Notes under the pieces: model-generated
What the model saw: the letters and a program-made list of their open reading frames with translations, nothing else
Told to the model about the DNA's origin: nothing
Databases searched by the model: none
Origin: a phage
Sequence record: PZ166175.1
Reading direction: 5' to 3' (one strand)
Length of the DNA stretch: 44,735 bases
Shown here: one piece after another, positions 5,991-24,283 of the stretch
How the letters are laid out: every line of letters begins with the position of its first letter
Numbering within the stretch: the stretch's first letter is position 1
Translations under genes and position numbers: made by a program

Positions 5991-6287
5991 GTTGATACCT
6001 CGTTTCGTTTACTTCGTTTCAGTGATTGCCATCTTGCCACTTGTTTACGTGTCGGTCAACGTATTTTTATGTCTATTCCATCGCGTATACGTTTTTTCGG
6101 CCTTCAAGGTAGCGTCAGCACTGGTTGTAAACGCGCCGTATCCCCTGTATACCGTTTTTGAGGGTACTTTCCTATATATGTGCCTTTTTATTCCTACAAT
6201 GTCATCCCTTTCCTACAAGTGTCAGAATATCTGCGCGGAACATATCAATTATCTCACCAATGATCGGTATACACAGTATACATATAT

Positions 6288-6308
6288 ATAATAATAATAA
6301 TAATAATA
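6288..6308. repeat. (ATA)7 microsatellite inside a block shared with 24125..24187
   Basis: ataataataataataataata read directly; paralogous block has (ATA)5. Confidence 0.8.
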
Positions 6309-6519
6309 AAGTAAAATGTTGATATATATAGATATTATATTGTATATCGTGTGTATATCTCGCGTAAAAACGTAGGTTAGTGTTCGCTAACTTTTGTGAC
6401 GACACTGAGTATACATGGGTTACGCGTATGCGAAAAATGGCCCGGCAAGAATAAAAATCAACTTGTATGGTAGTCCTTCAATCCTTCATTCACTCACCCA
6501 CCACTTCATTTCACTTTTC

Positions 6520-6605
6520 GCAACAATCAAAAACATCATTGCATCTGAAGCAATATTGCTATATGTGCAATAATCACGTGAATCATTGCAATATCTGCAA
6601 CAATA
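6520..6605. repeat. iteron-like array, five GCAAYAAT copies plus GCAATATTGC and CACGTG palindromes
   Basis: gcaacaatc, gcaatattg, gcaataatc, gcaatatct, gcaacaata within about 85 bp of non-coding DNA. Confidence 0.5.
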
Positions 6606-6616
6606 CATAAATCTTA

Positions 6617-6691
6617 CGAATAGCACTTTTTGCTAAAGACATTAGGGTCTGGTGGGGCTATAGTTAACTCACCAACAGCGAGGGTGTAGAT
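6617..6691 (+). promoter_or_regulatory. early promoter cassette (plus orientation)
   Basis: AATAGCACTTTTTGCTAAAG, 23 nt, TATAGT, then RBS and ATG at 6692. Confidence 0.5.
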
Positions 6692-6889
6692 ATGAAAGTA
6701 AAGGTTATTGAGCTTGATTTCTGTGGTGATATTTATGATGACGAGTATGAGTACTATGGCATCAATCAAGGAGGTGTGCATGAAGTGGTAACTACTTATC
6801 CGGACTTTGAGGCAATTGTAGTGGTTAACAAGTATGGCCGTAATGTTATGCTCTACAATAGAGAGGTTGAAATCTATGAAGAAAAATAA
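6692..6889 (+). CDS. hypothetical protein (65 aa)
   Basis: ORF track; cassette upstream. Confidence 0.5.
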   Translation: MKVKVIELDFCGDIYDDEYEYYGINQGGVHEVVTTYPDFEAIVVVNKYGRNVMLYNREVEIYEEK

Positions 6890-7055
6890 AGATGGATTAC
6901 GTCACGAGTGCGCACTGATTGGGCTTAACGAAGATTACACAGACCTTGTGGTGCGCGGAAAGTTGGACATAGATTTGGCTAAGCAATTCCAGTCAGAGGA
7001 TGAATTCCTGTGCTGTGATGGACTTGGCTGCGTAGAATGTTTGCCATTTATTTGA
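6876..7055 (+). CDS. hypothetical protein (59 aa, MKKNKDG...)
   Basis: ORF track 6834..7055; start moved to the ATG after GAGAGG. Confidence 0.4.
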   Translation: MKKNKDGLRHECALIGLNEDYTDLVVRGKLDIDLAKQFQSEDEFLCCDGLGCVECLPFI

Positions 7056-7065
7056 GGATTGAGAT

Positions 7066-7305
7066 GTGAAAATTCGCTGCACTAACTGTATCACCAGCAC
7101 CGAAAATAAAGTATTAACTCCATTCGTAAAAGGATCTGTATACGACGCTGAGCCGCTAATGATTAGCGGCAAGGTAATACAGAACGAGTGGTTGATTAAT
7201 GGCGCTGAGCGACCGCACAAGAACGATTCTGGCTGGATTGCCATTGCAGGATGGAATGTTGTGATGTTTATCCCTGGAATTGCAACTTTTGACGAGGTGA
7301 AATGA
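7066..7305 (+). CDS. hypothetical protein (79 aa), GTG start
   Basis: ORF track; Cys-x2-Cys at N-terminus. Confidence 0.4.
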   Translation: MKIRCTNCITSTENKVLTPFVKGSVYDAEPLMISGKVIQNEWLINGAERPHKNDSGWIAIAGWNVVMFIPGIATFDEVK

Positions 7306-7466
7306 TGCTATTACCATCTGAGATAAATTATTTCGATCTTGAGGTTATAAGCGCCTATAGCGGAAAGGGCTGGCCTTGCGGAGACTGGTTCCGCGAAGAC
7401 CTGCTTGAGAGCCATGAAATTATGATCAAGGCGATAGAGAAGGCACGAAATAGCACTAATTGCTAA
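7302..7466 (+). CDS. hypothetical small protein (54 aa)
   Basis: hand translation MMLLPSEINYFDLEV...; ATGA overlap with upstream gene; 3' end runs into the next cassette palindrome. Confidence 0.35.
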   Translation: MMLLPSEINYFDLEVISAYSGKGWPCGDWFREDLLESHEIMIKAIEKARNSTNC

Positions 7467-7519
7467 AGCCCTTCGGGGATTTTCCTGTATATTCATCTCA
7501 TCGAAACGGAGGATTTGAA
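7445..7519 (+). promoter_or_regulatory. early promoter cassette
   Basis: AAATAGCACTAATTGCTAAAG, 22 nt, TATATT, CATCTCATCGAAAC, GGAGG, ATG. Confidence 0.5.
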
Positions 7520-7624
7520 ATGAAAGTTTACTTGCTTAATGCTTATACTTATTATGAAGGCTTTGAAATTTGTGGTGTTTTTGATACAGAGGAACTAGCT
7601 GAACTTGAAATGAATAGGCTCTAA
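7520..7624 (+). CDS. hypothetical small protein (34 aa)
   Basis: hand translation MKVYLLNAYTYYEGFEICGVFDTEELAELEMNRL; strong RBS GGAGG. Confidence 0.35.
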   Translation: MKVYLLNAYTYYEGFEICGVFDTEELAELEMNRL

Positions 7625-7858
7625 GTTATAGATATAGAACTTGGCTATGGTCCTGATTATTATCTTATTGAAGAATTTGACGTTAAGGTAGAGATTTAAT
7701 GTTCGATAACTTTAATGACGCAATGGATGAGGCTTTTTACCGAGCCTCACTTGATGAAAGATTTACGGTTTAGTTCAGAAGGTTGACAAGATTGTTGTGC
7801 GAATCGTGCGCAAATCAGTACCTAACAAATTCATGTGGACAACGAAGAGAGTAAAAAA

Positions 7859-8278
7859 ATGACCATTAATTACTGCAAGATAACTGCCGGATGGAACAAA
7901 ACCACAAATAACTGGGTTAGCAACGAAAACGTACTCTACAAAGCTCGCGTTAAAAAGGTTCACCAATGGGTTGATGGTGTAGTTAAGGAGGTGGAATTTA
8001 AGCAAATCAAGAAAGATGGAAAATGGATTAACCTTGAAGAGCGCGGAAGATACATTAAGACTAAAACTCTTTACGTTACCCGAGTTAACCATAACTCGTC
8101 AGTTAAGAAGTCATTTAAGCTCGGAAAGAGATACCAGGTATCTATGCATGCTGGGATTGGACAAAATGCTGGGTATATTTATGACGAAGATGGTAATGCC
8201 TGGCAGCTTTACCGAAGTGAGGATGTTGGGTTCTTTACTCTCTGTGGCACGTACTATTTTGAGGCTCAATATCTGTAA
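7859..8278 (+). CDS. hypothetical protein
   Basis: ORF track 7835..8278; start moved to the ATG after GAGAGTAAAAAA. Confidence 0.5.
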   Translation: MTINYCKITAGWNKTTNNWVSNENVLYKARVKKVHQWVDGVVKEVEFKQIKKDGKWINLEERGRYIKTKTLYVTRVNHNSSVKKSFKLGKRYQVSMHAGIGQNAGYIYDEDGNAWQLYRSEDVGFFTLCGTYYFEAQYL

Positions 8279-8352
8279 ATAGCACAAATTGTTAATGAAT
8301 TATAAGCGGTCGTTGTTATAATGGCCGCTCAGAAACAACACGGAGAGAAGTA
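8277..8352 (+). promoter_or_regulatory. early promoter cassette with consensus TATAAT
   Basis: AAATAGCACAAATTGTTAA, 22 nt, TGTTATAAT (extended -10), then RBS GGAGAG and ATG at 8353. Confidence 0.5.
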
Positions 8353-9936
8353 ATGTTTGATTTCAACGAAGATAAACTATCTGTTGAACAGGTTATGGCA
8401 ATTGCTGCCGCAGAAAACCTTCCACCTTTGCGCGTCGCCATTAATGCTAATGGATATCGCCAGTCTCAATCATTCTGGAAGGCTCCGGTCGAGATTGATG
8501 CAGCTAATGACAAGTATCCAGTAATCTCACTCGGCAATGATGTTGATGTTGTTGGTAAATTGTCAGCTAACATTGCTCGGAGCGTGCAATTCCCCGAGTC
8601 TTCAGCTTACATGCACTTCCTGGGGTGTATTTCCGCTGCGATGCTAGGCCGCTTTACCGTTGAGTATCACGGAACTCAGCAACCGACCTCGCTTTATGTT
8701 GTGACGAGCCAGCCTCCATCTACAGGTAAATCAGCAATAAACTCACTTTCTATTGCTCCAATGATTGCTGAGACTGAGAGACTGAATGAAGTGCGAAAGC
8801 GCGAGCGCAAAAAGATTATGGCTAAACTATCTGCGTTATCCAAAGAGATGAAGCAGGAAAAATCCCCGTCAGAGATGGCTTCTCTTTTCGAGGAGAAAGA
8901 GGAGTTGGAGGAAAAACTCGAGAAACTATGCGATATCGTTTTCCCGGTTTCAGATACCACACCGGAAGGTCTTGCGCGAATAAACAACCGTCAGGGCAAC
9001 TTTGCAGTAATCTCGGATGAGGCAACGAGTGTAAACTCACTACTTGGCATGACCTATGGTGACGGATCAAAGAAAACGAACAGTGAGCTTGTGCTTAAAG
9101 CATGGGATGCGGGTAACGTATCTATCGCGCGTGCGAACGCAGAAAGCAACATGAGTTTCGTTGCTATGGGTTGTATCTCTGTAATTGCGCAGGATGAGAC
9201 TATTAACGCCATCATGAATGCTGGTGCGCGTGGTATCGGTGTGTCGGAACGTTTTCTTCTTGTACGTGAAAAATCACTCCTGGGAGAACGTGTATTCGTT
9301 GATGAAAATGGTGAATCAACTTACGAGCCAATTGACGGTGGGCTGAAGTCTGACTACTTCCGATTGGTTCACGAAATAATGAATGAGCAAGATGTAAAGT
9401 TGACGGTAAGTAACTCAGCGATGAAATACCTCAACCTAGCGCGTCAGGAAATGGAACCTCACCTTGCTGACGGCGGGAAGTATTCACACACAATGTTGCG
9501 AGGCGCGTTGGGTAAGTTCGATAAGCAGGCAATCAGGATTGCGGCTGTTCTTCACACTGTGCGTAACTGGTTCAACCCAAATGGCGGTAGCCCGCAGAAG
9601 TCCAGGGAGATTGATCTTGACACAATGCAAGAAGCTGTGATTATGTTCCAGGAGTTGAGCAAAACTTATCTGTCATCTGCTAACGCCGCTGGTCACGCTG
9701 GCGACAATGCCGAGATGAATAAGCTGATTGATATTCTGATTAAGCAAGGCAAGAACGGTAAAGGCGTAGTTGGTATTCGTTCATTATATGAAGCGGCTCG
9801 TAAAGTTAAGCCGTTCGAGGCTCAGGCTGGAGTAATGACGAAGATTAAAGATCACCTACTGCCAATGCTTGACGAGAAAAACTACACGTGCCTGATTGGT
9901 GATAAAGTTTACATTAATCCGCGATTGCTGGGGTAA
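8353..9936 (+). CDS. hypothetical 527-aa protein with P-loop-like and DE-box-like motifs
   Basis: ORF track; motifs PPSTGKS and VISDEAT read from the translation; own cassette promoter; no family confidently recognised. Confidence 0.6.
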   Translation: MFDFNEDKLSVEQVMAIAAAENLPPLRVAINANGYRQSQSFWKAPVEIDAANDKYPVISLGNDVDVVGKLSANIARSVQFPESSAYMHFLGCISAAMLGRFTVEYHGTQQPTSLYVVTSQPPSTGKSAINSLSIAPMIAETERLNEVRKRERKKIMAKLSALSKEMKQEKSPSEMASLFEEKEELEEKLEKLCDIVFPVSDTTPEGLARINNRQGNFAVISDEATSVNSLLGMTYGDGSKKTNSELVLKAWDAGNVSIARANAESNMSFVAMGCISVIAQDETINAIMNAGARGIGVSERFLLVREKSLLGERVFVDENGESTYEPIDGGLKSDYFRLVHEIMNEQDVKLTVSNSAMKYLNLARQEMEPHLADGGKYSHTMLRGALGKFDKQAIRIAAVLHTVRNWFNPNGGSPQKSREIDLDTMQEAVIMFQELSKTYLSSANAAGHAGDNAEMNKLIDILIKQGKNGKGVVGIRSLYEAARKVKPFEAQAGVMTKIKDHLLPMLDEKNYTCLIGDKVYINPRLLG

Positions 9937-10275
9937 GTGATGTTTCTGCTCGATATATTTAAGTTCTGCGAGTCGTATTCATACTTTACTCGTCAGCATT
10001 TGGCGCGATTCATATACCAACACAAGGACTCTGAGAGGTTTAGCAAGGCATCTGGTTTATCACATAGAGAGTTTTGCAGCGCTGCTTCAAAGGAGTTTTG
10101 CGCGAAGATGCTTAGTGCGGGTTACATTGATGGTAGGTGCGGTGAGTTTGTTAGCAAGGGGAGTTTAAAGAGGCCATTTGGCTTCAACTTTGAGGCACTT
10201 AGCGGGTATGAGAGCAAGTACATAAAAGAGATGATGAGCATAGGAAAAATGACTGACGACGAGTTATTTAGCTAA
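9937..10275 (+). CDS. hypothetical protein (112 aa)
   Basis: ORF track; start abuts the stop of the 527-aa gene; followed by a terminator. Confidence 0.45.
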   Translation: MMFLLDIFKFCESYSYFTRQHLARFIYQHKDSERFSKASGLSHREFCSAASKEFCAKMLSAGYIDGRCGEFVSKGSLKRPFGFNFEALSGYESKYIKEMMSIGKMTDDELFS

Positions 10276-10281
10276 AAATAT

Positions 10282-10305
10282 AGCCTCCATTAGGAGGCTT
10301 TTTTA
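10282..10305 (+). terminator. rho-independent terminator closing the plus-strand early operon
   Basis: AGCCTCC-atta-GGAGGCT followed by TTTTTT. Confidence 0.6.
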
Positions 10306-10679
10306 CGTCTTAAGATTAATGCCATGAGAGCTAAAACCAGCAGACCCATGGATCCTGTTCCAGCCCACGGAAGTGCTGATGATTCGTTATTGGTAATTTC
10401 AATCTTTTCGGCAGTGATTGTGGATGCCTTAATCGAGTTGTCAGCAGTCTTTTTTCCGCTCGAGCTATCCAGGGAACCTACGCTAGAATCCTTAACGGAA
10501 GCATCGCTGGAGTTGCTGGAGTCTACCTTGTTCGTTAACCCGACACCAACCTTATTGTTCTCTGCGCCAGCTTGAGCGCTAATCTCTGGCTTACTGCCAA
10601 TTAAACCAGTCAGCGCAGATGTTGCCGAACACCCAGATAAAGCTGCGCACATTACTAACGCTGCAATCCACTTAAGCAT
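10290..10679 (-). CDS. unimolecular spanin (putative)
   Basis: N-terminal lipoprotein signal with lipobox LSGC plus C-terminal transmembrane helix LLVLALMALIL; last gene of the lysis cassette. Confidence 0.6.
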   Translation of the reverse strand: MLKWIAALVMCAALSGCSATSALTGLIGSKPEISAQAGAENNKVGVGLTNKVDSSNSSDASVKDSSVGSLDSSSGKKTADNSIKASTITAEKIEITNNESSALPWAGTGSMGLLVLALMALILRRKKAS

Positions 10680-11689: not shown

Positions 11690-11765
11690 CGTTTCGATGT
11701 GGTAATTATGCCGCATTTCTGCGGCATTGGTTAGGCAAAAAGTGCTATTAGCTAAACATTTTAGG
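11690..11765 (-). promoter_or_regulatory. variant early promoter cassette with hairpin TGCCGCAGAAATGCGGCA
   Basis: minus sense: TTTAGCTAATAGCAC, hairpin, CATAATTACCACATCGAAAC. Confidence 0.35.
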
Positions 11766-12884
11766 GCGACAAATGAAGCGGCCAACTTCACCGAATTCTT
11801 TATGGTAGACAATAACTGCCGCTTGACGTTGAGAGCGCCAGCCGCCATTTGCGGAGTACGCGTCAGGACTCCCCAGCTGTCCATGCACCTCATCAATTCC
11901 CAAGTTTGTTTCTGTAATCTTCTGAGAATGCCAGTGGCCACTATGTGTGTAAACATACTCACTTTGACCAAATAACTTACGAAAATCAGTTGCCATAACA
12001 GTTAGTCGAGTATCGGCTTTCCGCATTTGGTGCCCGTGAGTGTATCCAATAAGCGTCTTTCCAAAGCTGGTCATCATCATTGCAGCAGGGCTAACATCAA
12101 CATTTACGCGAGGCTCATCTTCATAAAATGCAGCAAGCGCAGCGCGGAGCCAAACCATTCCAGCCTCGTCGTGATTCCCACTTATTACTTTAATATCAAT
12201 AACTTGATGCTTTTCCATCATTCGAGAAATTGCACGTCGCACTGACCGGATTGCCACATAAACAATTTTTGCGTAACGACTGTCAGAATCTAAGATATGA
12301 CCCGAGGCCGGGGTTTTAGCCTCCAGGGAATCGTAATGTAGGAAATCGCCACCCAATACCAATACAGCATTCTTAGAGTTTGGTGCCTTATCTACAGCGT
12401 AGTCAAAGAACCCATTCATAACCTTCTCTGCTGTTGCTGTGTCGTAGTTTTCGCCACACTCGTGTTTGTGTGCCATTGCTCCAATGTGTAAATCAAAAAC
12501 TGGATACATCGCAAGCGTGTTATCATCAAAGTTAACATTCGGTGATTCGGATGGAATGGCCTTTGGCAAATCAGAGCAGAATGCCTCACGTGCTTGCTGC
12601 ATTAAAACCTCAAGTCGCTCATTGTCTATTGAGGTTTTAACCCAGCGAATCTTCTCGTTGCCTCTCGCGTCAATCAATGTTGAAGTCCCTTTGACCAAAT
12701 AGCCGTCAGGAACCAGCTTCTTAATCCCTGGGTTTCCATGAAGCTCGCCGGATTTTGCCAGCTTACTACGACGCAATTCAACGTTGCGAATGTTCATTCC
12801 GTACTTCTCTGCGATTGCTTTGTTCGTCATGCCATTTGCCAGTTCTTCGCGCAATTGTTCGTTGGTGATTTTTGCAGTTGCCAT
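11748..12884 (-). CDS. calcineurin-like metallophosphoesterase with N-terminal HTH-like segment
   Basis: motifs DLHIG, GGDFLHYD, GNHDE, GHQ, GHWH in canonical order; N-terminal MTNKAIAEKYGMNIRNVELRRSKL resembles an HTH. Confidence 0.65.
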   Translation of the reverse strand: MATAKITNEQLREELANGMTNKAIAEKYGMNIRNVELRRSKLAKSGELHGNPGIKKLVPDGYLVKGTSTLIDARGNEKIRWVKTSIDNERLEVLMQQAREAFCSDLPKAIPSESPNVNFDDNTLAMYPVFDLHIGAMAHKHECGENYDTATAEKVMNGFFDYAVDKAPNSKNAVLVLGGDFLHYDSLEAKTPASGHILDSDSRYAKIVYVAIRSVRRAISRMMEKHQVIDIKVISGNHDEAGMVWLRAALAAFYEDEPRVNVDVSPAAMMMTSFGKTLIGYTHGHQMRKADTRLTVMATDFRKLFGQSEYVYTHSGHWHSQKITETNLGIDEVHGQLGSPDAYSANGGWRSQRQAAVIVYHKEFGEVGRFICRPKMFS

Positions 12885-15170: not shown

Positions 15171-17165
15171 TCAATCCTCCATAGTAAAAGATTTGTTTGC
15201 AATGATATCCTGACCTTTCTGGTTTTTTCTATGGGTCACCCGCAAAGGCTCACGAAATTGACTTGCATTAGTCATAATCATTCTTGCATTACGCAGCCTA
15301 CCTATTCTAAACGCCTCTGCTTTGCTCTGTATGTGAGTCTGACAAAATGCTTTCCACTTAACAGAGCAAACACGATGGTCACTTTCTGGAAAAAATGTTT
15401 CATATGCAATGAACTTCTGACCACTGTGAGCCATGATTTCATAACGGGCGACTATGCCAGTTTGGTTTTTAGTTAATCCAATGCTGAATCCGTAAACCCT
15501 CAACCAATCACCTTGTCGATACATCTTTCCAGACAATTTTGCGTTAGGGTCAATAAGCATTTCTCCGCAGCAGCGGCAGTTTTTAGCGGCGATATCATTC
15601 TTTTCACCGCAACCTTTCTTAATAGTAACTTTTGTCTGCGGGTCCTCTATATCTTCACATAAGCGAAATGTAAAAAAATGCTCACAACGCTTCCCGTCAA
15701 TTACGTTATTGCAACGACGAGCAAAAGGAGAGTTCTCGTAACTACAGGCCGGACATATTCTTGGCTTATCTCCGCCTTTGCGTGAAGACTTAAATTTCTG
15801 GTCCTGCACTTCCTCTATGATTGGGTCAAAGTACAATTCCGCCATGTCATCAAGAGTACCAGCGAAGTCTAGCACCACGTGATCATCCTTAACCATTCCC
15901 ATTTCCTTATGCTTATTCTTAAGAATTCGCATACCTCGCCCCAAAAGCTGAATCAGTAACGTGATGCTACCAACCTTGCGAAGAATTATTGACGTGTCCC
16001 ACGGCGGGACATTGACGCCAGTTGTGAGGCAACCAATCTGAAAGATGAATTTATACTTACCCTCAGATGCATCAGCTAGAATCTCACGACGCTTTTTCTC
16101 ACCTGTAGAGTCAGTTACTATTGCCCAGGTTACACCCTCAGGAAGCGCCTCGGCTGCCTCCTCGCAATGCCGCTTGCCTGAACAAGTTACTAGTGCTGCG
16201 TTACGAGTTTCCATAAACTTGGCTGCGAACTGCATAATCTTTTGCGTCATGGACTGGTTTTGATGAATTTTTTCCTGCATCGCATCCATTTCTTTCTTAC
16301 TAAAGTCTTTCACGCCATCACTACCGTCTGGAACAAACTCGCTAAGGTCGTAACCCAAATCACCAACCTCTCCGTAAACAGTTGGAACCACGAATCCCAA
16401 ATCAACAAGGTAATTTGTTGGAACCTGAATCACAGTTTTTCGCCAGAACCCACGAATGTTTGGATTACTAACGACGATATGATCATTGTTTCGATAAGGG
16501 CTACCAGTGAGGCCGAATATACGAAGCTCCCGCCCGTATTTTTCACGGCAGCGACGCTTCATCTCAGTGATTATTAGCGTGTACTGCGCACGACCAGTAC
16601 CAAGCAATCCAGTATTAACGCCATCCTTAAAAACCATCTCGCCTTTCTTTGTGCTCATTTGTTCAAATGTTTCTTCATTCTCTTCTGCTTCCACGATATC
16701 CATGTGATCGACCATGTGACACTCATCTATAGCTATAACGGCAGGAACATAGTCACCAAGCCCCTTAAATAAGCCATTAGCGGCCGTGCCCTCACTGGCA
16801 ACTATAGTTGGGTAGTAAACTGATTTAACGTTAAGGCCAGCGCAATATACGCTATTACGGATACCAAAATTACGAAGCTCTTCTGAGTTCTGGCTGATTA
16901 TCTCTGACTGGCGAGAAAGAACCATGTAAGGCAAGCCCAATTGCTCCATGCGCTTACCAATCATGGCGAGAATGATTGTCTTACCAGCCGATACGGAAAG
17001 ATCTGCGATAAATGGGGCCTCGTACTTGCCAATAGCCTTTCCGATTGCATCAAATGTAACGCACTGGAACTCGTAAGGGGTTATCTCGCCAAACTGGTAA
17101 TCTTTCTGAATCTGTTTAATTCTTTCTTTATCAAAGTTGGCAACCAGCTTATCGATAGGCAACAT
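15171..17165 (-). CDS. SF2 (DEAD/DExH-type) helicase with C-terminal Cys-rich zinc-ribbon-like region
   Basis: Walker A SVSAGKT, DExH box AIDECHM, Cys cluster CPACSY...RRCNN...CRCCGE. Confidence 0.7.
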   Translation of the reverse strand: MLPIDKLVANFDKERIKQIQKDYQFGEITPYEFQCVTFDAIGKAIGKYEAPFIADLSVSAGKTIILAMIGKRMEQLGLPYMVLSRQSEIISQNSEELRNFGIRNSVYCAGLNVKSVYYPTIVASEGTAANGLFKGLGDYVPAVIAIDECHMVDHMDIVEAEENEETFEQMSTKKGEMVFKDGVNTGLLGTGRAQYTLIITEMKRRCREKYGRELRIFGLTGSPYRNNDHIVVSNPNIRGFWRKTVIQVPTNYLVDLGFVVPTVYGEVGDLGYDLSEFVPDGSDGVKDFSKKEMDAMQEKIHQNQSMTQKIMQFAAKFMETRNAALVTCSGKRHCEEAAEALPEGVTWAIVTDSTGEKKRREILADASEGKYKFIFQIGCLTTGVNVPPWDTSIILRKVGSITLLIQLLGRGMRILKNKHKEMGMVKDDHVVLDFAGTLDDMAELYFDPIIEEVQDQKFKSSRKGGDKPRICPACSYENSPFARRCNNVIDGKRCEHFFTFRLCEDIEDPQTKVTIKKGCGEKNDIAAKNCRCCGEMLIDPNAKLSGKMYRQGDWLRVYGFSIGLTKNQTGIVARYEIMAHSGQKFIAYETFFPESDHRVCSVKWKAFCQTHIQSKAEAFRIGRLRNARMIMTNASQFREPLRVTHRKNQKGQDIIANKSFTMED

Positions 17166-17266: not shown

Positions 17267-17749
17267 ATGAATGCAGTAGACAAGCGAACCATTAACGGCA
17301 ATAACGGAACCATCCGCACCGAAGACAAAAAGAAACGTAAACGACCTTCAGGCTACTACGTTTTAAAAGATGAAGTAAGGGCCGGGCTACGCGCGCGGCT
17401 AGAGATTGTTCTTGATTTCTTCGGCACAAAGGCGAATATCGCAAAGCAGTTAAAGGTAACACCACAGGCCGTAGAAGAATGGTTTAAGCGCGGCATGATT
17501 TCTGCGCGTGGCGCCCAGCTATCGCACAACTACTATAAGCGAAATGGAGAAGGCTTTCGCGCTACATTCTGCCGCCCAGACCTGCAATTCGACGGTAACG
17601 GCAAGCCGCTAACCCTGCGGTGCAAAAAACGTCATATGCTGCGTGTTGTTACTGAGGCCGAATTAGCCACCAAGCCAGAGTGTCGATCATGGCGCAAGAT
17701 TAAGGCCGCTAACGAGGCAGCACGAAAAGCTAAAGAGCAAGGGAAATAG
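17267..17749 (+). CDS. putative DNA-binding protein (HTH)
   Basis: ORF track; segment TKANIAKQLKVTPQAVEEWFKRG resembles an HTH; basic N-terminus. Confidence 0.45.
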   Translation: MNAVDKRTINGNNGTIRTEDKKKRKRPSGYYVLKDEVRAGLRARLEIVLDFFGTKANIAKQLKVTPQAVEEWFKRGMISARGAQLSHNYYKRNGEGFRATFCRPDLQFDGNGKPLTLRCKKRHMLRVVTEAELATKPECRSWRKIKAANEAARKAKEQGK

Positions 17750-17802
17750 CACGAATTGATAAACAGTGGCGCTATACATTGTGTATAGTGCCTTTATTGT
17801 TT
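17745..17802 (+). promoter_or_regulatory. early promoter cassette
   Basis: AAATAGCACGAATTGATAAAC, 22 nt, TATAGT, then RBS GGGGGTAA and ATG at 17803. Confidence 0.5.
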
Positions 17803-18741
17803 ATGGGGGTAACTATGAGTCACCATGATAAGAACGAAGTGATAGCAAAAATGAAGGGAATGTGGAGTGAATTCTACTTGTCTCATTTAGGATGGAACAG
17901 AGAAAATCTTAGCAAGAAGCATGGACCATGCCCGAATTGCGGAGGTCGTGATAGGTTTCGATTCACTGATGAGCTAGGACAAGAAAAAGGAAACGGAGCA
18001 GCAATATGCAACCAGTGCGGAAATGATTCCGGTGTTGGCTGGGTTATGAAATGCTCGGGAATGAGTTATAGCGAAACAATAGATACGCTTGGTGATTGGC
18101 TGAATCTAGTTCCGGTGGAGGTTATATCAAAAGCAAACAAAAGAGCATCAAGAACTTCACCGTATAAGATGGGTGCTCAAATGGATCATGAAAAATGCTG
18201 GGAGATAATGAGGAGAACTGAGGTTGTTGAGTCAAGCCCGCTGACACAGTATGAAGGTATCTACAGCGAGTTTGGTTTTGATGTTGGCAGGACAAAATCA
18301 GGAGAACTAATACACGCACTGCCGTGCTTTATGGCTTATAGTGACGGTATATCAGAAGAAATGTGCAATGTAATGTTTATCAATGAAGAGGGGGATGTTA
18401 GTTATGCTGCAAAAGATTACACTCGCCAGTCTGTTTCTGTTATTGGTTCCTTTAAGGATGATGAGTACGCTTATCTGGTCGATAATTTCATTGACGGCTA
18501 TCGCGTTCATCTTGCTACTGGAAACCGCTGCGTGCTTGTTTGCTACTCCAGTTACAACATGGAAATGGTTGCTTACGCGCTCAAAGATTTCAAGTTAAGA
18601 GTCGCTTGCACTCGCCACGATTTTGATTTACTTGCCGTTGCTGACGATCGCAATCTTGATGTTGTAATGCCAAATGACGATAACCACTTCAAATCAGGAA
18701 TAAGAAAGCGAATATACAAAGCAAGCGAATTACTAGACTAA
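17803..18741 (+). CDS. DNA primase-like protein with N-terminal zinc-binding domain
   Basis: ORF track 17779..18741, start moved to ATG after RBS; motif HGPCPNCGGRDRFRF...CNQCG typical of primase zinc-binding domains. Confidence 0.6.
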   Translation: MGVTMSHHDKNEVIAKMKGMWSEFYLSHLGWNRENLSKKHGPCPNCGGRDRFRFTDELGQEKGNGAAICNQCGNDSGVGWVMKCSGMSYSETIDTLGDWLNLVPVEVISKANKRASRTSPYKMGAQMDHEKCWEIMRRTEVVESSPLTQYEGIYSEFGFDVGRTKSGELIHALPCFMAYSDGISEEMCNVMFINEEGDVSYAAKDYTRQSVSVIGSFKDDEYAYLVDNFIDGYRVHLATGNRCVLVCYSSYNMEMVAYALKDFKLRVACTRHDFDLLAVADDRNLDVVMPNDDNHFKSGIRKRIYKASELLD

Positions 18742-23824: not shown

Positions 23825-23900
23825 CGTGTCTCTCTGGTTGTTTGATTTCGATGGGTTAACTATATATTCGGCGAAGTAGCCAGTCCAATTGGTTTTGCCA
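23825..23900 (-). promoter_or_regulatory. degenerate early promoter cassette
   Basis: minus sense: TTGGCAAAACCAATTGG, spacer, TATATAGTTAACCCATCGAAA; upstream palindrome differs from consensus. Confidence 0.35.
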
Positions 23901-24143
23901 ATCGTTGACTTAAGTTTACGTGTTAATACCTTGTAATTCCGCGTAGGCATTGCCACTAGTTACGTTTCTTGGCATCTCAGCCCAGCTATAGCTCAATGTA
24001 ACCATCGTGTATATCGTGTATACCGTTTCTTGCAGAGGTGCATTGGTATAGCTGTCACGCAATACTGTATAAATCAACATGATATTGAAATTATAACCGG
24101 AACACTCTATAGAAGTAGTTACATGATATACACAGTAATATAT

Positions 24144-24158
24144 ATAATAATAATAATA
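24144..24158. repeat. (ATA)5 microsatellite inside the block paralogous to 6267..6337
   Basis: ataataataataata read directly. Confidence 0.8.
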
Positions 24159-24283
24159 AGAGTAAAAGGTTGATATATATAGATATTTTAATGTAACCAA
24201 TGCGTAACTAGGCGTAACAGGGCGTATATCATTTTTCGCGGATTAGATTGCATACATCGAGTTACATCGGTTACGTGTATGCA

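Follow-up and report, generated by a model that had tools for sequence, protein, structure and literature searches.

The DUF3987-family helicase of an Rtp-like phage, a probable replicative helicase, and its winged-helix partner: a known gene pair

Phage proteins of the DUF3987 family were described by Kazlauskas, Krupovic and Venclovas in 2016 as divergent superfamily 6 (SF6) helicases that are distant relatives of the MCM proteins (PMC4889955). The same authors noted a C-terminal winged helix and a frequent association with primases of the archaeo-eukaryotic (AEP) or DnaG type, and proposed a role as replicative helicase; the N4 protein dns, described there as a DUF3987-type helicase, is essential for phage replication (PMC4889955). 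The same replicative prediction was made for DUF3987 domains fused to primases, in which DUF3987 stands in for DnaB, MCM or RepA (PMC5862659). In 2025 the PriCT-DUF3987 protein AgaPH was purified and found to be an oligomeric 5′→3′ helicase which uses ATP or dATP, needs Walker A and Walker B for its activity and binds its own primase-polymerase (PMC11724360). Here we report on a member of this family encoded in the phage DNA of sequence record PZ166175.1, the whole stretch of 44,735 nucleotides (nt) being referred to as the window. The gene codes for a protein of 527 amino acids (aa) and is followed by the gene of a small partner protein of 111 aa (Table 1).

A first-pass annotation of the window had described this 527-aa open reading frame (ORF) with a P-loop-like PPSTGKS (residues 121-127) and an acidic VISDEAT (residues 219-225), all of which we confirm. 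It had left the protein in an unclear family without a fold that could be named, and had proposed a comparison with DUF3987. This comparison is positive. Pfam PF13148 (DUF3987) matches residues 81-430 on profile positions 3-349 of 364 with E = 3.2e-41 (142.2 bits versus a cut-off of 27), and PHROG 2373, 'DNA helicase', matches with E = 1.7e-258. Together with the fold, which is AAA+ and MCM-like and has a winged helix at the C-terminus (see below), these matches place the protein in a known family. PF13148 is carried by all of the 120 homologues listed, several of which are named 'DNA helicase' or 'DUF3987 domain-containing protein'. Orthologues labelled 'DNA helicase' or 'DUF3987' are found between the same neighbours in Rtp, T1, SU57, ZL19 and others; the record of Rtp rtp67 reads 'similar to gp09 of phage T1', T1 ST9 is annotated as 'DNA helicase', and the protein identity rises up to 98.5% (BEK1-1). 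That both genes are real is clear from tblastn, which detects the partner in 835 phage records and the helicase in 925, the latter for the most part phages of Klebsiella, Escherichia, Salmonella and Shigella. Neither protein has a match in NCBIfam or PADLOC, and against the PDB sequences phmmer and a profile search gave only chance matches for the helicase (E > 0.09).

The DUF3987 family appears to have no solved structure in the PDB copy searched. An AlphaFold2 model built on 33 relatives with 35-89% identity has a mean pLDDT of 89 and a pTM of 0.86. The best fold matches of this model are MCM, RavA, BchI, Cch and ComM; after the top match the structural scores are 11.1 for RavA, 10.2 for BchI, 9.6 for SCCmec Cch, 9.4 for ComM and 8.5 for the SaPI5 primase-helicase. 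The protein divides into three parts (Table 1). In the first of these, residues 1-100, the model has neither an OB fold nor a zinc domain, as there is no beta-barrel and no cluster of Cys or His residues, and Pfam gives no match ahead of residue 81.

The catalytic motifs are kept in the 33 relatives, and the invariance of their key residues holds down to 35% identity. The P-loop reads QPPSTGKS (residues 120-127) within the family form QPPS-x-GK[ST], and Q120, P121, P122, G125 and K126 are invariant. The departure from the canonical GxxxxGK[ST], pointed out already in the first-pass annotation, is real: the first glycine is a glutamine, and as this glutamine is invariant in the relatives we regard it as a family trait and not as decay. 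The P-loop is followed by an insertion, a long antiparallel hairpin of helices (residues 126-191). The Walker B residues S-D-E (221-223) close the strand 217-221, S221 and E223 being invariant. A pre-sensor-1 beta-hairpin (residues 255-270) with the invariant R260 stands directly ahead of the sensor-1 strand VIAQDE (277-282), and E282 and E299 are invariant too. The arginine finger has the form [ST]-E-R-[FIY] (residues 298-301, here S-E-R-F) with R300 invariant and resembles the 'SRF' arginine finger of MCM proteins. Sensor 2 follows with L-R-G-x-x-G-K-x-D-K (residues 382-391, here LRGALGK at 382-388), in which R383 and K388 do not vary. The Walker A lysine and the Walker B acidic residue required in AgaPH are both present and invariant here (K126 and E223). 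Taken together, model and alignment yield a complete AAA+ catalytic set. Fold and motifs indicate the helicase motor itself and not the helicase loader which had been considered before.

With the MCM proteins (archaeal, MCM2-7, MCM8/9) the phage protein shares the features that mark an MCM-type AAA+ core, namely the beta-hairpin before sensor 1, a finger of the S-R-F type and the sensor-2 arginine, and in addition the C-terminal winged helix. It differs in several points. The OB-fold/zinc collar is missing and a short, acidic, all-helical N-terminus is found instead; the helical hairpin of residues 126-191 comes in behind the P-loop; the winged helix at the C-terminus has a basic pI; and the Walker A motif is QPPSxGKS, whereas MCM proteins have GDPxx[AS]KS. 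The MCM profile PF00493 gave no Pfam match at E ≤ 0.1, and no MCM chain was retrieved from the PDB with phmmer or hmmsearch at E ≤ 10. AgaPH shares the Pfam family with the phage helicase. Its Walker A and B motifs are present 'with some variation', its C-terminal domain is small, and it forms an oligomer; it is the proposed replicative helicase of a pAgo-carrying mobile element, where it works with a primase. Compared by description, AgaPH carries an N-terminal PriCT domain and its gene lies directly downstream of that of an archaeo-eukaryotic primase-polymerase, whereas the phage helicase has a short helical N-terminus and a primase of the T7/DnaG type which is encoded 7.8 kb off. The N4 protein dns, likewise compared by description, resembles the phage helicase as a DUF3987-type helicase that is essential for replication according to Kazlauskas et al., but the helicase of N4 continues into an archaeo-eukaryotic primase domain at the C-terminus, whereas the phage helicase stands alone. 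SCCmec Cch (DUF927) and the SaPI Rep/primase-helicases belong to other Pfam families and have structural scores clearly below that of MCM. An identity with DnaB or T7 gp4 (superfamily 4, RecA type) was rejected, as neither a RecA-type core nor DnaB-like best structural matches were found, and so was a place in the loader-initiator clade of DnaC, DnaA and ORC-Cdc6, which is not the best structural match of the AAA+ core.

The genomic surroundings point to replication as well. Besides a primase (Table 1) the window encodes a Cro-like regulator, a superfamily 2 (SF2) helicase (15171..17165, Helicase_C) which adjoins the primase and a VRR-NUC protein, this VRR-NUC protein, an ERF protein and a DUF3799 exonuclease. 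The annotation of Rtp lists a single-stranded DNA binding protein (SSB) and no DNA polymerase, and T1 and TLS are without a polymerase gene (PMC11447400). Outside the Drexlerviridae, homologues with 35-37% identity sit inside replication/recombination modules. One such module has the order DUF3987, SF2 helicase, nuclease, DUF3799, AAA_24 and SSB, and in the distant relative Klebsiella phage ZX4 the helicase is followed by a 62-aa ORF, a primase, an HNH gene and a DEAD helicase. Family membership, an MCM-like fold, strictly conserved residues at the ATP site and a gene context common to the Drexlerviridae are what we find for the 527-aa protein. A replication role, as suggested already in the first-pass annotation, is the best reading, and in our view the protein is quite probably the replicative ring helicase of this T1/Rtp-like phage, an MCM-type AAA+ motor of the DUF3987/SF6 group.

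We suggest that the helicase could work as follows. The subunits would assemble into a ring, most likely a hexamer, with the ATP sites between the subunits and the finger of Arg300 acting in trans. The hairpin with Arg260 would line the central channel and pull single-stranded DNA, and the ring could in this way unwind the phage replication fork. It would act together with the T7-type primase of the phage, the phage SSB and the DNA polymerase III of the host. The polarity is probably 5′→3′, as in AgaPH, which would suit a lagging-strand helicase serving a DnaG-type primase. At loading, duplex DNA or a partner protein would probably be bound by the basic winged helix at the C-terminus. The helicase and its partner would be expressed from a standard promoter cassette of the phage, and their transcript would end at the terminator in common with the lysis genes.

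Several points weigh against this assignment. A literature search retrieved no experiment on the 527-aa protein or on T1 gp09, and a search on T1 genes 1 and 2, known from DNA-synthesis mutants, yielded nothing usable. The Walker A motif is without its first glycine. At the Walker B position D222 five of the 33 relatives have an alanine, the next residue E223 being invariant; an alanine would be unusual here for an active AAA+ ATPase, and for this reason the ATPase chemistry may depart in detail from that of textbook AAA+ proteins. A primase fused to the helicase or encoded immediately upstream, as is frequent though not obligatory with DUF3987, is not found, and the lysis cassette and other genes lie between the helicase and the primase 7.8 kb off. 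Translocation runs 3′→5′ in MCM and Cch, but 5′→3′ has been reported for AgaPH. For the partner, a replication role is argued from fold, charge and synteny only. Finally, in the literature on T1 and TLS it is the SF2 helicase adjacent to the primase that counts as 'the' helicase (PMC11447400), so that either of the two enzymes may drive the fork.

The reading of the locus could be extended to a self-loading initiator-helicase which recognises the origin as SaPI Rep, Cch, P4 alpha and the SV40 large T antigen do. The C-terminal winged helix, with or without the 111-aa partner, would then recognise and melt the origin and assemble the ring. We consider this possible, though less likely than not. 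The winged helix is indeed basic (pI 9.3), and the annotations of Rtp and T1 list neither a loader like DnaC or lambda P nor a separate initiator protein. The winged helices of MCM-type proteins, however, often serve protein contacts and not sequence recognition, and origin binding would here be a prediction from the model; for Cch and SaPI Rep origin binding and self-loading have been demonstrated, whereas the phage helicase is likened to them by structure. Convincing iterons are also missing. The 'nearby iterons' of the first-pass annotation are weak: the 620 nt of non-coding DNA at 5995-6620 contain no more than two to three imperfect copies of GCAAyAATCA..ATCATTGCA (6520-6543 and 6567-6590). 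When the helicase gene and its vicinity were searched for iterons and for an origin, only such weak repeats of two to three copies and no convincing array came up. The authors of the TLS study likewise found no origin-like repeats (PMC11447400). In favour of an origin, the AT-rich non-coding regions 5995-6620 and ~23900-24280, at both of which the coding strand switches, have an 85-nt element in common. This AT-rich element of about 85 nt consists of (ATA)n followed by AGTAAAAnGTTGATATATATAGATATT and is present at 6261-6344 and at 24120-24195, in both cases where the genes diverge; the two copies could be early promoters or origins.

An auxiliary motor for recombination-dependent replication, repair, degradation of host DNA or processing of concatemers, with the fork driven by the SF2 helicase or by the DnaB of the host, is in our opinion unlikely. 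It would agree with the second helicase beside primase and VRR-NUC, named as the replication helicase in the T1/TLS literature (PMC11447400), and with the strong recombination module of T1-like phages, which comprises ERF, an exonuclease and an Mre11-like nuclease. Yet the pairing of an SF2 helicase with VRR-NUC is typical of enzymes for fork remodelling or repair and not of ring-shaped replicative motors, whereas ring-shaped AAA+ helicases of the MCM type are replicative. Also, DUF3987 replaces DnaB, MCM or RepA in primase fusions (PMC5862659), dns is essential for the replication of N4 (PMC4889955), and the gene is found in 925 phage records. A two-gene module for host interaction, takeover or anti-defence outside replication is very improbable: the pair lies in an early-type block of small ORFs of unknown function and the partner is limited to one phage family, which is typical of accessory genes, but PADLOC has no match, the catalytic motifs are intact, the helicase is conserved well beyond the family and inside replication modules, and virtually every Drexlerviridae record that was searched has the pair, which is the pattern of a core gene. 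The helicase was also considered as a known trigger of host defence, and this was rejected since the papers on the Avs sensors and on Retron-Eco11 are not about this family.

The replicative ring helicase that we favour has a small companion. The first-pass annotation gave the partner 112 aa, and such an ORF exists from a GTG (9937..10275); the likelier start, however, is the ATG at 9940, which yields the 111 aa of the closest homologue and lies 3 nt past the stop codon of the helicase. With so short a distance the two genes are probably translationally coupled. The partner is a winged-helix protein restricted to the Drexlerviridae: the three-helix bundle and the beta-hairpin wing are both found, and fold searches against the PDB and BFVD returned generic winged helices and orthologues only. 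Its body (residues 1-80) is basic (pI 9.2) and its tail acidic (pI 4.4). In the tail an acidic-aromatic motif [ST]D[DE]ELF (residues 104-110) is invariant in all 32 aligned members; in Rtp-like phages it stands close to the C-terminus, whereas in many other genera an extension of ~20 aa comes after it. By analogy, the motif is reminiscent of the acidic docking tails of SSB or T7 gp2.5, although it mostly does not form the extreme C-terminus.

The gene of the partner follows that of the helicase in all Drexlerviridae genera examined (T1, SH2, phSE-2, tonijn and Kilian, and SU57 with one ORF between the two), and it is absent beside the distant helicase homologues with 35-37% identity. A HMMER scan of 1.84 billion representative proteins found only 21 members of the partner family, all of them short, and no informative Rosetta-stone fusion. 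The sole library match is PHROG 2794 (function unknown). The label 'YdbL', which the partner carries in some records, looks propagated. A duplication of the C-terminal winged helix of the helicase as the source of the partner was rejected, the hhalign probability being 0.1% and a second helicase-like locus being absent from the window. As to its role, our first choice, though a guess and a tentative one, is a replication accessory that would bind DNA or serve as a loading adaptor and dock to a protein through its acidic DDELF tail; a transcription factor is the alternative. One could go further and propose that the helicase and the partner form an initiation/loading module in which [ST]D[DE]ELF docks to the beta-clamp, to the SSB-binding pocket, to DNA polymerase III or to the primase, and in which a hairpin around the -10 element (see below) controls expression. 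If true, such a two-component module would explain how a phage without a polymerase captures the DNA polymerase III of its host, but we hold the proposal to be a long shot.

The pair forms its own unit from promoter to terminator, in agreement with the first-pass annotation, which had also assigned it a cassette promoter with a consensus TATAAT. With a TG at 8314-8315 ahead of it, this hexamer (8317-8322) is an extended -10 element (TGTTATAAT). The cassette consists of a box AAATAGCACnnnTTGnTAAA, a spacer of ~22 nt and the -10 element, and 14 copies of the box are present in the window with up to 4 mismatches (Table 1). As all 14 are co-oriented with the downstream gene and nearly all stand ~22 nt ahead of a hexamer like TATAGT or TATAAT, the cassette promoter is real. 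The box repeat holds the palindrome TAGCA-N5-TGCTA, and a conserved leader TACCCCATCGAAAC belongs to the cassette as well. Inside the spacer of some cassettes (4525, 7449) a terminator-like hairpin is found. For the -10 element at 8317 no -35 hexamer exists at sigma-70 spacing, and a consensus promoter scan made no call at the site. The ATAGCAC box itself was rejected as a sigma-70 -35 element, TTGnTA being 22 nt away from the -10, and as an extended -10, TAAAAn having no T at -7. From TLS the 21-nt repeat aaATAGCACnnnTTGnTAAAA is already known, and its presence in T1 and Rtp has been noted too; the functions suggested for it are those of a stoperator, of an enhancer site or of an UP-like element (PMC11447400).

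The -10 element of the helicase promoter is enclosed by a hairpin (Table 1). At the orthologous site upstream of the helicase in other genera a hairpin is found too, with an unrelated stem sequence and with a TAnnnT hexamer in or beside the loop: the stems are TTGACGGTGT/ACGCCGTCAA in T1, TTGGCGGTGTA/TACACCGTCAA in SH2, TGTTGCCGTTA/TAGCGGCAACA in phSE-2 and TGGGCCGT/ACGGCCCA in tonijn. We surveyed 45 distinct helicase-upstream regions from 80 IMG/VR relatives with dinucleotide shuffles. In 60% of these regions z is below -2, and at least 10 unrelated stems occur. The hairpins finish 15-24 nt ahead of the start codon of the helicase; in the Webervirus relatives there is only a version of 4-5 bp. 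A compensatory series of stems runs through a G.T intermediate (TGGTTGGCCT/GGGCCAACCA, TGGTTGGCCT/GGGTCAACCA and TGGTTGACCT/AGGTCAACCA). Within the window a comparably strong hairpin is present in four of the 14 cassettes and a weaker one in two more; besides that of the helicase, the cassettes with such a hairpin include those with the boxes 3972-3954, 5352-5334 and 17745-17763. From cassette to cassette, too, the stem sequence changes while its arms remain complementary. The covarying hairpin is a matter of the phage promoter cassettes generally and not of the helicase operon specifically. It is not an intrinsic terminator, as no U-run follows, and Rfam has no family match in 6000-10400. The tolerance of G.T pairs hints at a role at the RNA level. 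If transcription starts ~7 nt past the hexamer, the 5′ arm would be transcribed only by read-through from the two promoters further upstream (6619 and 7449); alternatively, the hairpin may act at the DNA level at the promoter. The covarying -10 hairpin may be new, as the description of the repeat in PMC11447400 does not mention it.

At the other end of the unit the first-pass annotation had placed a strong terminator. A terminator is present, AGCCTCC-ATTA-GGAGGCT (10282-10299) followed by TTTTTT, and its predicted stability of -13.6 kcal/mol on the plus strand and -14.3 kcal/mol on the minus strand is a moderate one. It stands between convergent genes, overlaps the end of the spanin gene and is common to the pair and the lysis cassette (spanin-endolysin-holin). 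In SU57 and T1 a terminator is annotated at the same place.

Table 1. Coordinates of the helicase locus and of related features in the window
Feature	Position	Strand	Remarks
Promoter box AATAGCACAAATTGTTAAT	8278..8296	+	one copy of the Drexlerviridae 21-nt repeat aaATAGCACnnnTTGnTAAAA
Hairpin AGCGGTCGTTG-tta-TAATGGCCGCT enclosing the -10 element	8305..8329	+	-14.2 kcal/mol, z = -3.6 versus shuffles
Shine-Dalgarno sequence GGAGAG	8342..8347	+	5 nt ahead of ATG 8353; conserved in Rtp and SU57
DUF3987-family (SF6, MCM-like AAA+) DNA helicase, 527 aa	8353..9936	+	orthologue of Rtp rtp67 and T1 gp09
N-terminal helical region, residues 1-100, acidic (pI 4.9)	8353..8652	+	AlphaFold2: helices only, in 11-97
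AAA+ ATPase core, residues ~101-410	8653..9582	+	AlphaFold2 secondary structure, alignment of 33 relatives
C-terminal helical linker and basic winged helix, residues ~411-527	9583..9933	+	winged helix 450-527, pI 9.3
Partner, small winged-helix protein, 111 aa	9940..10275	+	orthologue of Rtp rtp66 and T1 gp10
Bidirectional intrinsic terminator, 7-bp G+C-rich stem, tetraloop, T-run	10282..10305	both	detected on both strands
DNA primase, T7 gp4-type zinc ribbon	17779..18741	+	Pfam Zn_Ribbon_Prim, E = 8e-15; orthologue of Rtp rtp51 and T1 gp24
Promoter boxes	6619, 7449, 8278, 17745, 24283	+	up to 4 mismatches
Promoter boxes	3273, 3972, 4525, 5352, 14754, 18803, 22658, 30810, 44517	-	up to 4 mismatches

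The region 8277-10305 has 88-91% nucleotide identity to more than 100 T1-like coliphages, including Rtp, vB_EcoD_SU57, MSK, ZL19 and 'A110b', and against Rtp the identity of the region with the helicase pair is ~89%. The matched relatives belong to the genus Rtpvirus in the subfamily Braunvirinae of the Drexlerviridae. From this identity and classification we conclude that the window is essentially the whole genome of an Rtp-like phage. Some near-identical Rtp/T1-like genomes are labelled as phages of Campylobacter, Pseudomonas or Stenotrophomonas, host labels which look doubtful. The GC skew of the window tracks the direction of transcription. The only Rfam match in the whole window is a tRNA gene at 2384-2458 on the minus strand (RF00005, 59.6 bits). 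Also on the minus strand, at 11748-12884, a 378-aa protein is encoded which matches the PHROG 'DNA repair exonuclease' and is an orthologue of T1 gp16; it has a weak match to calcineurin-like phosphoesterases and an HTH-like N-terminal segment.

Rtp and T1 have kept the same order of small early ORFs, helicase, partner, terminator and the convergent spanin-endolysin-holin cassette. The first-pass annotation had held that a well-characterised homologue in the same gene context would make the locus ordinary, and Rtp rtp67/rtp66 and T1 ST9/ST10 are such a pair. The differences are only local: T1 has an HNH gene (ST8) and SU57 a 171-aa ORF between or before the pair. The sequence features described in the first-pass annotation are all there with small corrections, and its idea of a P-loop protein with a role in replication stands; the unclear family and the loader do not. 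The helicase and its partner are thus an already known, Drexlerviridae-wide gene pair of T1-like phages, a real but ordinary locus. The assignment of such proteins to their family, their relationship to MCM, the winged helix at the C-terminus and the predicted part in replication go back to the study of 2016, and for one family member helicase activity was demonstrated in 2025.

For the annotation of these phages two names can be given confidently, DUF3987-family (SF6, MCM-like) DNA helicase for the large protein and conserved winged-helix protein of the T1 gp10 family for its partner. T1-like phages are described as common contaminants in the laboratory and in fermentation, and they are candidates for phage therapy. 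A defined essential helicase would therefore be useful as a target and as a marker for this group of phages.

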